Shown here: piece by piece, positions 31,351-36,870 of the stretch | How the letters are laid out: the number at the start of each line of letters is the position of its first letter | How positions within the stretch are numbered: position 1 is the first letter of the stretch | NCBI RefSeq assembly: GCF_002854065.1 | Contig: NZ_CP024147.1 | Length of the DNA: 64,000 bases | Direction: 5' to 3' (one strand) | From: Escherichia coli | GTDB taxonomy: Bacteria; Pseudomonadota; Gammaproteobacteria; Enterobacterales; Enterobacteriaceae | Translations under genes and position numbers: made by a program | Notes under the pieces: model-generated | What the model saw: only the letters and a program-made list of their open reading frames with translations | Told to the model about the DNA's origin: nothing | The model's database searches: none

Positions 31351-32451
31351 TTAGAACTGATAGGTAATGCCCGTAGCGACGATGTTATCGGTGCGAATAT
31401 CTACGGCACGGGTAAAGTCGCTTTCATCAATCAGGTTGATTTTATAATCAACATAGGTCGACATATTTTTGTTGAAGAAATACGTCGCACCAACGTCGAT
31501 ATACTCAATCATGTCCTGGTCGCCGTAGCGGCCCAGATCTTTGCCTTTCGATTTCAGGTAAGCGAGTGAGGGGCGCAAGCCGAAGTCGAATTGATATTGC
31601 GCCACCACTTCAAAACTTTGTGCTTTGTTAGAAATATAACCATCGCCATAGGTGGTCATGTTTAATGTTTCAGCGTAATTAGCTGCAAAGTAGATGTTGT
31701 TGGCATCATATTTTATACCTGTAGCCCACAGTTCTGCATTCTTACCGGAGGCATTGAGAGGATTAGCAGCGGCTCTTTCCTGCGCATTTGTCCGATCGGA
31801 TTTGGTATATACCGCACCGATACCAAAGCCATCATAAACATAAGTTGAGGAGATACCGAAACCGTCACCGTTGGCACGCGTGTAGTCAGCACCATAAAGA
31901 TGACTGTTGTCAGTACGTTCATTTTTGCCTTGATATTGCGCGGCAAAGTTCAGCCCTTCAATTAAGCCAAAGAAATCGTAGTTGCGATAGGTTGCCACAC
32001 CGGTGGTACGGTATGTCATGAAGACATCTTTCTGACTCCAGGTATCGCCACCAAATTCTGGCAACATATCAGTCCATGAACCAATGTCATAGCCGACACC
32101 GTAGTTACGGCCATAGTCCAGAGAGCCAAATTCACTAATTTTTAAACCAGCATAGGCCAGACGGGTCTTGTTGCCGCGCGAGCCGTTGGCTTCATCGTTA
32201 TAGCCTTTAAAATCATATTCCCAGTGACCAAAACCAATCATTTGATCATTGATTTGCGTTTCTCCTTTAAAGCCGAGACGGGCATAAGTTTTATCACCAT
32301 CGTCACGCTTATCATCAGTAAAATAACGTAGAGCGGTAACCTTGCCATAAAGGTCGAGTTTATTACCATCCTTGTTATAGACTTCGGCAGCGTGTGCTAC
32401 GTTCGCAGCTAACAAACCAGTTACAACCACCGCAACTATTTTTAATTTCAT
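31351..32451 (-). CDS. OmpC/OmpF-family general porin, intact (corresponds to the yddL position)
   Basis: 366 aa; signal peptide [38 protein letters not shown]-terminal ...GITYQF; classical 16-strand porin pattern. Confidence 0.85.
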
Positions 32452-32680
32452 TTAACAGAATCCTTTTAATTATCGTTAAACGTATTTTCTAAACGAATTT
32501 TAAACGGCGTCATTTATAAACGACATACTGTTTTTAAATTAGAATGGTGATTAAAAACAATGAGAAAAATAGATGAAATAATATTATTTATCGATATGTG
32601 ATCGAAGTCTAAATGAGATATAAGGTGAATTACTGGTATTTGAAATTTATTTTTTAATATTGTCGGAGTTTATCTGATTA

Positions 32681-32705
32681 ATTGCCGGGCCGTAGACCCG
32701 GCAAT
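32681..32705. terminator. hairpin immediately downstream of yddG
   Basis: ATTGCCGGGC-cgtaga-CCCGGCAAT perfect palindrome abutting the yddG stop. Confidence 0.45.
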
Positions 32706-32709
32706 TATT

Positions 32710-33591
32710 TTAGCCACGACGTGTCGCCAGCCAGCAGAGCAGGGAACCGCCGCAGACCATCAGCGCGCCTTGCCAGAACGAGAACGACAGCGGGGCGCTG
32801 AGCAGCACGGCTGCAAGCGCTGAGGAAAGTACGGGCGTAAAATACGAACCTACCGCCATAATGGTGACGTTGCCATGCAATATACCGACATTCCATGCAG
32901 CATAAGCAAATCCTAAGGTAAATGCCGCAGAGATGAGTTTAATTATGACGGGCATGCTAAATACCATTTCTGGTTGTGGCGTGAGAAAATAGTAAACCCA
33001 CAGACTTGCTCCCGTTAGCAGGACAAAAACGGTAATTCCGTTAAATCCGCGTGCGTATTTATTCGTTACTGTGCAGTAGGCTGCCCAGATAAACGCACCA
33101 ATGAACGCCAGGAAATAACTCAATGGGCTGGTGGTGATATTATTGATGATTTCATCATAATGTAACCCATTGTCACCGCCTAACACCCAGCAGACGCCGA
33201 CGAGGGCTAATAATAATCCTGGTACAATCAGCCAGTTGGTTTTCTGACCATTAAACAGAATGGCAAAGAGAATTGTCAGGCTGGGCCACAGATAGTTCAC
33301 CATACCCACTTCAATCGCCTGATGACGGGTCGCCGCATACCCTAAGGAAAGCGCCAGACAGATTTCATAGCTGACGAATAACAGACTCCCGGCGAGTAAA
33401 TAGCCTTTCGGGATTTGCCGAATACGCGGAAATCCAACCGTGAAGATTAACAGCAGCCCGCTTAATGAATAGATAGCAGCTGCGCCACCGACCGGGCCGA
33501 GCCCCTCACTGACACCGCGAATCAATCCTACCATCGTGCTCCACAGGACGATCGCTATTAGCCCTATGAGCGTTGCTTTTTGTCGTGTCAT
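32710..33591 (-). CDS. yddG: aromatic amino acid exporter (DMT/EamA family)
   Basis: 293 aa, 10-TM EamA-type membrane protein. Confidence 0.85.
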   Translation of the reverse strand: MTRQKATLIGLIAIVLWSTMVGLIRGVSEGLGPVGGAAAIYSLSGLLLIFTVGFPRIRQIPKGYLLAGSLLFVSYEICLALSLGYAATRHQAIEVGMVNYLWPSLTILFAILFNGQKTNWLIVPGLLLALVGVCWVLGGDNGLHYDEIINNITTSPLSYFLAFIGAFIWAAYCTVTNKYARGFNGITVFVLLTGASLWVYYFLTPQPEMVFSMPVIIKLISAAFTLGFAYAAWNVGILHGNVTIMAVGSYFTPVLSSALAAVLLSAPLSFSFWQGALMVCGGSLLCWLATRRG

Positions 33592-33744
33592 GCTCGCTGT
33601 TTTGTCTCTCTTGCCGTTAAAAATTAAGCTGAATTTTATAGCATTTTTTTAACTGGCCTGTCAGGCAGTGGTGCGTTTTTCTACCGCTATTGAGGTAGGT
33701 CAATTTGCGCAGGCGGATTATTTTGTGGCAAACACGTGTTCTTT

Positions 33745-33758
33745 TTGATTTCGCGCAA
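33745..33758 (+). promoter_or_regulatory. FNR-like site in the fdnG promoter
   Basis: TTGATttcgCGCAA (FNR consensus TTGAT-N4-ATCAA), centred about 70 bp upstream of the fdnG ATG. Confidence 0.4.
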
Positions 33759-33822
33759 AAAGATTCAGAATTTTACTGTTAGTTTCCTCGCGCAGTAATA
33801 CCCCTGAAAAAAGAGGAAAGCA

Positions 33823-36800
33823 ATGGACGTCAGTCGCAGACAATTTTTTAAAATCTGCGCGGGCGGTATGGCTGGAACAACAGTAGCGGCATTGGGCTTT
33901 GCCCCGAAGCAAGCACTGGCTCAGGCGCGAAACTACAAATTATTACGCGCTAAAGAGATCCGTAACACCTGCACATACTGTTCCGTAGGTTGCGGGCTAT
34001 TGATGTATAGCCTGGGTGATGGCGCGAAAAACGCCAGAGAAGCGATTTATCACATTGAAGGTGACCCGGATCATCCGGTAAGCCGTGGTGCGCTGTGCCC
34101 GAAAGGGGCCGGTTTGCTGGATTACGTCAACAGCGAAAACCGTCTGCGCTACCCGGAATATCGTGCGCCAGGTTCTGACAAATGGCAGCGCATTAGCTGG
34201 GAAGAAGCATTCTCCCGTATTGCGAAGCTGATGAAAGCTGACCGTGACGCTAACTTTATTGAAAAGAACGAGCAGGGTGTAACGGTAAACCGTTGGCTTT
34301 CTACCGGTATGCTGTGTGCCTCCGGTGCCAGCAACGAAACCGGGATGCTGACCCAGAAATTTGCCCGCTCCCTCGGGATGCTGGCGGTAGACAACCAGGC
34401 GCGCGTCTGACACGGACCAACGGTAGCAAGTCTTGCTCCAACATTTGGTCGCGGTGCGATGACCAACCACTGGGTGGATATCAAAAACGCTAACGTCGTG
34501 ATGGTGATGGGCGGTAACGCTGCTGAAGCGCATCCCGTCGGTTTCCGCTGGGCGATGGAAGCGAAAAACAACAACGATGCAACCTTGATCGTTGTCGATC
34601 CCCGTTTTACGCGTACCGCATCTGTGGCGGATATCTACGCGCCTATTCGTTCCGGTACGGACATTACGTTCCTGTCTGGCGTTTTGCGCTACCTGATCGA
34701 AAACAACAAAATCAACGCCGAATACGTTAAGCATTACACCAACGCCAGCCTGCTGGTGCGTGATGATTTTGCTTTCGAAGACGGTCTGTTCAGCGGCTAC
34801 GACGCTGAAAAACGCCAGTACGATAAGTCGTCCTGGAACTATCAGTTCGATGAAAACGGCTATGCAAAACGCGATGAAACACTGACTCATCCGCGCTGTG
34901 TGTGGAACCTGCTGAAAGAGCACGTTTCCCGCTACACGCCGGACGTCGTTGAAAACATCTGCGGTACGCCAAAAGCCGACTTCCTGAAAGTGTGTGAAGT
35001 GCTGGCCTCCACCAGCGCACCGGATCGCACAACCACCTTCCTGTACGCGCTGGGCTGGACGCAGCACACCGTGGGAGCGCAGAACATCCGTACTATGGCG
35101 ATGATCCAGTTGCTGCTCGGTAACATGGGTATGGCCGGTGGCGGCGTGAACGCATTGCGTGGTCACTCCAACATTCAGGGGCTGACTGACTTAGGCCTGC
35201 TCTCTACCAGCCTGCCAGGTTATCTGACGCTGCCGTCAGAAAAACAGGTTGATTTGCAGTCGTATCTGGAAGCGAACACGCCGAAAGCGACGCTGGCTGA
35301 TCAGGTGAACTACTGGAGCAACTATCCGAAGTTCTTCGTTAGCCTGATGAAATCTTTCTATGGCGATGCCGCGCAGAAAGAGAACAACTGGGGCTATGAC
35401 TGGCTGCCGAAGTGGGACCAGACCTACGACGTCATCAAGTATTTCAACATGATGGATGAAGGCAAAGTCACCGGTTATTTCTGCCAGGGCTTTAACCCGG
35501 TTGCGTCCTTCCCGGACAAAAACAAAGTGGTGAGCTGCCTGAGCAAGCTGAAGTACATGGTGGTTATCGATCCGCTGGTGACTGAAACCTCTACCTTCTG
35601 GCAGAACCACGGCGAGTCGAACGATGTCGATCCGGCGTCTATTCAGACTGAAGTATTCCGTCTGCCTTCGACCTGCTTTGCTGAAGAGGATGGTTCTATC
35701 GCTAACTCCGGTCGCTGGTTGCAGTGGCACTGGAAAGGTCAGGACGCGCCGGGCGAAGCGCGTAACGACGGCGAAATTCTGGCGGGTATCTACCATCATC
35801 TGCGCGAGTTGTACCAGGCCGAAGGTGGTAAAGGCGTAGAACCGCTGATGAAGATGAGCTGGAACTACAAGCAGCCGCACGAACCGCAATCTGACGAAGT
35901 AGCTAAAGAGAACAACGGCTATGCGCTGGAAGATCTCTATGATGCTAATGGCGTGCTGATTGCGAAGAAAGGTCAGTTGCTGAGTAGCTTTGCGCATCTG
36001 CGTGATGACGGTACAACCGCATCTTCTTGCTGGATCTACACCGGTAGCTGGACAGAGCAGGGCAACCAGATGGCTAACCGCGATAACTCCGACCCGTCTG
36101 GTCTGGGGAATACGCTGGGATGGGCCTGGGCGTGGCCGCTCAACCGTCGCGTGCTGTACAACCGTGCTTCGGCGGATATCAACGGTAAACCGTGGGATCC
36201 GAAACGGATGCTGATCCAGTGGAACGGCAGCAAGTGGACGGGTAACGATATTCCTGACTTCGGCAATGCCGCACCGGGTACGCCAACCGGGCCGTTTATC
36301 ATGCAGCCGGAAGGGATGGGACGCCTGTTTGCCATCAACAAAATGGCGGAAGGTCCGTTCCCGGAACACTACGAGCCGATTGAAACGCCGCTGGGCACTA
36401 ACCCGCTGCATCCGAACGTGGTGTCTAACCCGGTTGTTCGTCTGTATGAACAAGACGCACTGCGGATGGGTAAAAAAGAGCAGTTCCCGTATGTGGGTAC
36501 GACCTATCGTCTGACCGAGCACTTCCACACCTGGACCAAGCACGCCTTGCTCAACGCAATTGCTCAGCCGGAACAGTTTGTGGAAATCAGCGAAACGCTG
36601 GCGGCGGCGAAAGGCATTAATAATGGCGATCGTGTCACTGTCTCCAGCAAGCGTGGATTTATCCGCGCGGTGGCTGTGGTAACGCGCCGTCTGAAGCCGC
36701 TGAATGTAAACGGTCAGCAGGTTGAAACGGTGGGTATTCCAATCCACTGGGGCTTTGAGGGTGTCGCGCGTAAAGGTTATATCGCTAACACTCTGACGCC

Positions 36801-36870
36801 GAATGTCGGTGATGCAAACTCGCAAACGCCGGAATATAAAGCGTTCTTAGTCAACATCGAGAAGGCGTAA
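33823..36870 (+). CDS. fdnG: formate dehydrogenase-N alpha subunit (selenoprotein; UGA at 34408..34410 decoded as Sec)
   Basis: Tat signal MDVSRRQFFKICAGG; ORFs 33823..34410 and 34459..36870 are in the same frame, separated only by the in-frame TGA in ...DNQARV-U-HGPTVASL; total 1015 codons. Confidence 0.95.
34411..34450 (+). promoter_or_regulatory. SECIS element region (mRNA hairpin for SelB-directed Sec insertion)
   Basis: Sequence immediately 3-prime of the fdnG UGA (CACGGACCAACGGTAGCAAGTCTTGCTCC...) contains a GCAAG-TCTTGC stem-loop in the expected position. Confidence 0.5.

Follow-up and report, generated by a model that had tools for sequence, protein, structure and literature searches.

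A full-length porin gene beside yddG in Escherichia coli, probably the ortholog of Salmonella ompD

The window analysed here, a 64,000-nucleotide stretch of Escherichia coli DNA taken as a whole, contains on its minus strand an open reading frame of 366 codons plus stop, which begins with ATG and has no internal stop codons according to the ORF listing (Table 1). A Shine-Dalgarno sequence (AAGGA) lies 8 nt 5' of the ATG, and a terminator-like hairpin follows the stop codon. The encoded protein has an A-H-A cleavage motif near its N-terminus, with solved porin chains aligning from residue 22 on, and ends in ...GITYQF, i.e., with a terminal Phe. The sequence-only reading of this region described a complete 366-aa porin with signal peptide and C-terminal Phe, located between genes for leucine-rich-repeat (LRR) proteins and yddG, and both the description and the position hold; neither an internal stop nor a frameshift appears on re-translation.

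The porin gene is situated directly downstream of yddG, in the same orientation, between fdnGHI and narU-narZ, with the LRR block lying between it and narU. No phage genes are found among these neighbours (yddG, fdnGHI, the LRR genes, narU, and narZ). An inverted repeat with a 10-bp stem (AATTGCCGGG...CCCGGCAATT) occupies positions 32680-32706, directly past the yddG stop codon. Farther along, fdnG is split on the plus strand by an in-frame TGA at 34408-34410 into ORFs 33823..34410 and 34459..36870, with the same frame continuing across; this agrees with the selenocysteine codon known from formate dehydrogenase-N, and PGAP annotates a single 1,015-aa FdnG.

Table 1. Positions of the porin gene, its sequence elements, and its neighbours in the window
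Feature	Position	Strand	Details
Porin CDS	31351..32451	(-)	366 codons + stop; probable Salmonella ompD ortholog; EDL933 z2239; PGAP label 'ompC'
Sec signal peptide, codons 1-21, predicted cleavage after AHA	32389..32451	(-)	alignment to mature PDB chains begins at residue 22
Constriction-loop (L3) segment, codons 128-137, with acidic equivalents of OmpF D113, E117, D121	32041..32070	(-)	from alignment; invariant columns
Terminator-like hairpin, 9-bp stem with 6 G-C pairs, then T run	31316..31339	(-)	12 nt past porin stop codon
yddG (EamA/DMT exporter)	32710..33591	(-)	neighbour conserved 5' of ompD in Salmonella, Citrobacter, E. albertii, Enterobacter
5' leader region, including AAGGA ribosome-binding site	32459..32539	(-)	aligns with Salmonella and C. 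koseri ompD leaders
Segment missing from K-12 MG1655 (porin codons ~95-366, spacer, first LRR ORF)	30631..32167		TTGCCG microhomology at junction
RybB seed target equivalent, mRNA +18..+27	32425..32434	(-)	pairing kept with two G-U wobbles, in silico
MicC target position, codons 23-26	32373..32386	(-)	two synonymous changes weaken the duplex
Three LRR ORFs (425, 222, 169 aa), GC 34%	28604..31187	(-)	porin neighbour, not part of porin; EspR1-type in O157 annotation; absent from E. albertii

According to Pfam, the protein matches Porin_1 (PF00267) with 450.2 bits (cutoff 23.7, E-value 7e-135), residues 27-366 aligning to profile positions 1-337 of 337. In phmmer searches residues 22-366 align to the mature chains of OmpK36, OmpC, OmpF, and PhoE with E-values from 1e-127 to 1e-112. 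The AlphaFold2 model (pLDDT 73, pTM 0.73) has strands throughout, with low confidence in the L3 region and some loops, and appears to form a 16-stranded beta-barrel; Foldseek aligns it to OmpC 2J1N with an E-value of 3e-44 and TM scores of 0.86/0.90. As for the pore-lining residues known from OmpF (K16, R42, K80, R82, D113, E117, D121, and R132), all those checked are kept, the conserved positions being K37, R58, R97, D128, E132, D136, and R148 in precursor numbering. The L3 loop contains PEFGGD, and its acidic residues face the basic cluster K16/R42/R82/R132 (OmpF numbering). Both the signal peptide and the C-terminal aromatic residue (...TYQF, the BAM signal) are recognised by sequence. The precursor would be exported by Sec, cleaved after Ala21, and inserted by BAM via its C-terminal ...YQF. 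By analogy with OmpF and OmpD, it would make water-filled channels for small hydrophilic solutes, with a cation preference that is probably mild, and substrates pumped out by the neighbouring YddG may cross the outer membrane through it, as in Salmonella.

Regarding the class of the porin, sequence identity is highest to OmpD proteins of Salmonella, Citrobacter, and Enterobacter (72-78%), which are nearer to the window porin than any other porin class compared. Porins of the NmpC/Lc type follow with 66-71% (67-70% for NmpC, Lc, and phage porins), the best porin from a phage record having 69.8%. In the alignment with OmpC, OmpF, OmpN, and PhoE that the sequence-only reading had proposed, identity to the K-12 versions amounts to 59-62% (OmpC 62%, OmpN 62%, OmpF 61%, and PhoE 59%). 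That reading called the protein OmpC-family, which is right in the broad superfamily sense and fails in the narrow one: the protein is best seen as an OmpD ortholog, only 62% identical to K-12 OmpC.

RefSeq, however, labels the gene 'ompC: porin OmpC', and a second copy (paralog) of OmpC should be considered. The window porin does share the fold of K-12 OmpC (b2215; TM 0.86-0.90 to 2J1N), and its best PDB matches by both sequence and fold are OmpK36 and OmpC. It also passes the NCBIfam OmpC subfamily model NF007841, marginally (497.6 bits against a cutoff of 484), while staying under the cutoffs of both the OmpF and the PhoE equivalog models. The PGAP label arises because the NF007841 score just clears its cutoff, and this model evidently catches OmpD-like proteins too; the PDB ranking is unable to split OmpD from OmpC because no OmpD structure is among the PDB matches. 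In contrast, identity to K-12 OmpC is below that to every OmpD or NmpC protein compared. At the position of OmpF K80 the window porin has Lys, as do OmpD, OmpF, and PhoE; Trp occupies it in OmpC and OmpN, and OmpC has a long L4 insertion of its own. Finally, the true ompC is located elsewhere, beside micF and rcsD, while the window gene stands beside yddG at a locus syntenic with Salmonella ompD. An OmpC paralog is therefore disfavoured already, and we consider it very improbable.

Another candidate is NmpC, the prophage porin that is commonly named as the 'OmpD homolog' of E. coli (PMC3333887). NmpC and the phage Lc porins (DLP12, lambdoid prophages) belong to the same porin supergroup and have similar L3 and barrel residues; however, they are prophage-borne at other loci, while the gene studied here is chromosomal, keeps synteny with ompD, and is nearer to OmpD proteins than to NmpC. 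Salmonella OmpD (STM1572), the yddG-linked major porin, has the same type of signal peptide, the same pore-lining residues, and Lys at the OmpF-K80 position; 'porin OmpD' is also the name used in Citrobacter and Enterobacter. An insertion in the L4 region of the window porin is common to C. koseri and absent in Salmonella OmpD. The UniRef name for the exact window sequence, which occurs on at least 1,000 public contigs, is 'Outer membrane porin protein ompD'. In neighbor-joining trees (100 and 500 replicates) the window porin is grouped with the OmpD set in 31-40% of bootstraps, and the OmpD/NmpC supergroup has a support of 59%. Across replicates its sister is OmpD-only in 50%, NmpC-only in 9%, and mixed in 41%. 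With such support the protein tree does not fix the placement, and we base the orthology on gene order and on the homologous leader.

The gene order in Salmonella is fdnI-fdnH-fdnG / yddG (EamA, 293 aa) > ompD > GFA, smvA, smvR > narU > narZ, and C. koseri has the same order. In E. albertii a porin stands between yddG and narU, with the LRR genes absent, and E. hormaechei has yddG next to ompD (PMC11874173). The difference from Salmonella and Citrobacter lies 3' of ompD, where those genera have GFA-smvA-smvR and E. coli has the LRR genes; remnants of Salmonella GFA, smvA, and smvR were looked for in the window, and none were found. Immediately 5' of the ATG an 81-nt leader segment matches the Salmonella and C. 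koseri ompD leaders colinearly (73% identity, E-value 6e-8), and global alignments of the leaders score 8.7-9.5 standard deviations (z) above shuffled sequences. The spacer between yddG and the porin (32452-32709) is 258 bp long in E. coli, 252 bp in E. albertii, and 524-568 bp in Salmonella and C. koseri, with only the proximal ~80-170 nt alignable across genera. Between the window and Salmonella the flanking proteins are 85-93% identical, and the porin 72%. Faster divergence of a surface-exposed porin than of its neighbours is unsurprising, the comparison being uncalibrated here against other porin orthologs. Judging by sequence and gene order, with synteny being decisive, the window gene is most aptly called a positional ortholog of Salmonella, Citrobacter, and Enterobacter OmpD, not OmpC.

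An ortholog at this position could still be challenged by the published view of the locus. Okeke et al. identified it in 2011 as EHEC O-island 62 (z2239-z2242), pointed out the resemblance of yddL to the 5' end of z2239, and described the whole insert between yddG and narU as an island of 33-36% GC that was probably acquired recently (PMC3079680). The porin could accordingly have come horizontally, either with this low-GC island or on a prophage, as a conversion porin like NmpC/Lc; its patchy presence across E. coli and the existence of phage porins labelled OmpD agree with such an origin. However, the low GC is confined to the LRR block (34%), while the porin has 44%, which is similar to phoE (45%) and ompN (47%). 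In E. albertii the porin occupies the same site without the LRR genes and has 83% DNA identity, compared with ~85% for the flanking genes. The gene order and the alignable leader are common to Salmonella and C. koseri, and the absence of phage genes nearby and the low identity of the best phage porin speak against a prophage source. The patchiness, in turn, is explained by mapped deletions with identifiable junctions, as given below. Horizontal transfer is thus disfavoured for the porin, where it seems quite improbable, and is plausible for the LRR block, the longest gene of which is named 'espR1' (a T3SS effector LRR protein) by PGAP in O157:H7 PA20. Base composition and synteny suggest an island in two parts, with the porin ancestral at the site and the LRR block a likely insertion. 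Taken together, the gene is very probably a classical trimeric 16-stranded general-diffusion porin of the OmpC/OmpF/PhoE superfamily, orthologous to Salmonella OmpD and passed on vertically in E. coli at the conserved position beside yddG.

As for K-12, the sequence-only reading stated that only a yddL fragment is present here, and that is correct: at the porin position MG1655 has yddL (b1472) of 96 codons, abutting yddK, so K-12 has no intact gene at the locus. According to BLAST of the window against the K-12 locus, two segments are missing from K-12, 29670-30304 and 30631-32167. The former was deleted between 12-bp direct repeats (GATAAATCAATG) inside the LRR genes; the latter is the 1.5-kb deletion that takes the rest of the porin. 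The promoter region and the start of the gene are the same in both, with 98.5% DNA identity over window positions 32168-34000. The comparison with yddL that had been proposed shows YddL to be identical to the window protein through residue 93 and divergent after it; unlike the window porin, this stump cannot form a barrel. On its sequence, yddL is a truncation remnant of the ompD ortholog with codons 1-93 retained, and K-12-type strains lost the distal three quarters by a microhomology-mediated deletion. Origin of the K-12 state by insertion of yddK, as suggested in PMC3079680, was considered and rejected: yddK aligns to 30305-30630 joined to the region at or below 29669 and is therefore a deletion-fusion of two of the LRR ORFs. 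A 2023 paper still regards yddL as possibly encoding a 4-strand outer-membrane protein with a link to osmotic stress (PMC9976479); functional data are absent from the papers found to mention yddL.

Of the complete E. coli genomes, 5,426 in number, 5,388 match at least a portion of the region. The portion that K-12 lacks is present in 1,118 of them and is essentially complete in 1,101. As estimated from an evenly spaced sample of the matches, approximately 20% have the full-length state and 55% the K-12-type stump, and in 23% the whole porin and LRR region is gone. The whole region is lost in B2 strains, with such loss seen in EC958, CFT073, and IHE3034; the junction in EC958 lacks window positions 28467-32625. 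Carriers include O157:H7 and O145:H28, and phylogroup D/F lineages are reported by Okeke et al. in 2011 (PMC3079680). A search with a 55-mer centred on the SNP detects the nonsense change E78* (GAA>TAA at porin codon 78, window 32218-32220) in 68 of the 5,426 genomes, including DA33137. Feature names reading 'ompC: porin OmpC' hide pseudogene flags, and DA33137 bears this name despite its internal stop. Among other carriers, SCU-482 has a frameshifted copy and THO-008 an independent 3' deletion, while eight of eight further carriers sampled are annotated as intact. We estimate that the gene is intact in ~1,000 genomes, or ~19% of complete E. coli.

Losses also occur outside E. coli. In E. albertii CP034213 (6137-9053) the ompD ortholog is split by IS1 at the equivalent of window position ~32205, so that the gene was inactivated independently here too; narU has a further copy of IS1 immediately upstream. 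OmpD is absent from S. Typhi, i.e., it was lost also within Salmonella (PMC4215857). Regarding database clusters, the 90% identity cluster of the window porin comprises 9,017 members with a 603-aa representative and includes Roseburia LepA/EF4 proteins. This mixture looks like a clustering artefact of the database, and because of it the homolog search has no full-length representative at 100%.

Selection was assessed on 12 alleles, the window allele being compared with the 11 others. The most divergent of these, AST85, differs from the window by 38 synonymous and 5 non-synonymous changes (dS 0.18, dN/dS 0.03). For most allele pairs dN/dS is 0.02-0.04; the near-identical O157 allele has 0.14, a value resting on only 6 differences. 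Ten of the 12 translated alleles have no internal stop, and the 12 sequences vary at 8 amino-acid positions, one of which is the E78* stop. These values indicate strong purifying selection on the intact alleles and a gene that appears to be maintained where it is kept. A dN/dS of ~0.03 up to a dS of 0.18 therefore argues that the protein is made and useful where retained, and does not address timing. Major porins, OmpC among them, tend to have surface loops that vary far more, so the low diversity may hint at low or conditional surface exposure.

It should be considered, however, that the gene is intact and yet transcriptionally quiescent in ordinary conditions, like ompN and nmpC of laboratory strains, and has little role in permeability. 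Expression, proteomic, or phenotype data for the E. coli gene (z2239) were not found in the searchable literature, and searches for z2239, ECs2076, ECs2074, and EC042_1601 yielded nothing relevant beyond Okeke et al. 2011. The -10 region aligned with Salmonella has T>C at its last position: E. coli has C, while Salmonella and C. koseri have the final T, the Salmonella start site being inferred from a 69-nt UTR (PMC4911921). The small number of variable positions among the alleles hints at little surface-driven diversifying selection, and repeated loss suggests a dispensable gene. In contrast, the low dN/dS across the alleles, the intact annotation of all sampled further carriers, the stop-free state of most alleles, and the preservation of the ribosome-binding site, leader, and terminator all speak for a gene in use, and an alternative promoter-like site, TAGACT-17-AATAAT, is available at 32611..32583. 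On balance quiescence is unlikely, though it deserves to be taken seriously. As for activation, a CRP site at the conserved upstream GATCACA block is not claimed, since only one half-site matches well.

[quoted passage not shown] Comparison was limited to the experimentally defined Salmonella sites, with the MicC site taken from PMC3333887; RNAduplex on long sRNA and mRNA windows gave over-extended, uninformative duplexes and was dropped in favour of these site-limited tests. The RybB seed site is retained, with a duplex energy of -13.7 kcal/mol in E. coli against -18.3 kcal/mol in Salmonella. The other two sites, in contrast, are eroded: the 12-bp MicC site carries GAG>GAA and GUA>GUC (-6.8 against -15.8 kcal/mol), and the SdsR site is degraded as well (-15.0 against -26.7 kcal/mol). 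Salmonella-type control through all three sites together is thus not kept by the window gene; it is a regulatory trait of Salmonella and does not define the protein. As predicted from these duplexes, RybB, and with it sigma-E stress, could still repress the E. coli gene, and control by MicC and SdsR would not be conserved. Regulation therefore cannot simply be copied from Salmonella.

The finding itself is real but ordinary, and RefSeq already annotates the gene, UniRef names it, and the 2011 paper describes it (O-island 62, z2239). What is added here is the identity as ompD ortholog rather than ompC or nmpC, the deletion junctions, the counts of locus states including E78*, and the purifying selection. 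The loss events listed are the K-12-type, B2-type, and THO-008-type deletions, E78*, the frameshifted copy, and the IS1 insertion in E. albertii. A wider reading, which we offer as tentative, is that the K-12-based porin set (OmpC, OmpF, PhoE, and prophage NmpC as 'OmpD homolog') is possibly incomplete for about 1 in 5 strains. The true ompD ortholog would then be at yddL/z2239, a selected, working porin in O157:H7, O145:H28, and phylogroup D/F lineages that has been independently destroyed at least five times and is uncoupled from MicC and SdsR.

The practical value lies mostly in annotation clarity, namely in the ompC label, in nmpC as the OmpD equivalent, and in yddL as a small outer-membrane protein; because of the PGAP label, carrier genomes appear to hold two ompC genes. 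We infer porin function in E. coli from homology, and on that analogy the effects on permeability and on phage or colicin susceptibility anticipated by the sequence-only reading seem reasonable. Salmonella OmpD is reported to exceed all other porins in abundance, to be a target of protective antibodies, and to contribute to the efflux of toxic compounds (PMC4215857). Of the E. hormaechei porins, ompD and ompC are the two for which loss has been linked to carbapenem resistance and to reduced virulence (PMC11874173). If the reading is true and the gene is expressed, antibiotic permeability, the repertoire of phage and colicin receptors, and antibody targets would be altered in those pathogens, and the porin could partner YddG in efflux as in Salmonella. 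By the same analogy OmpD, if expressed in E. coli, could have consequences for drug entry, phage therapy, and vaccines in the carrier lineages, major EHEC included.
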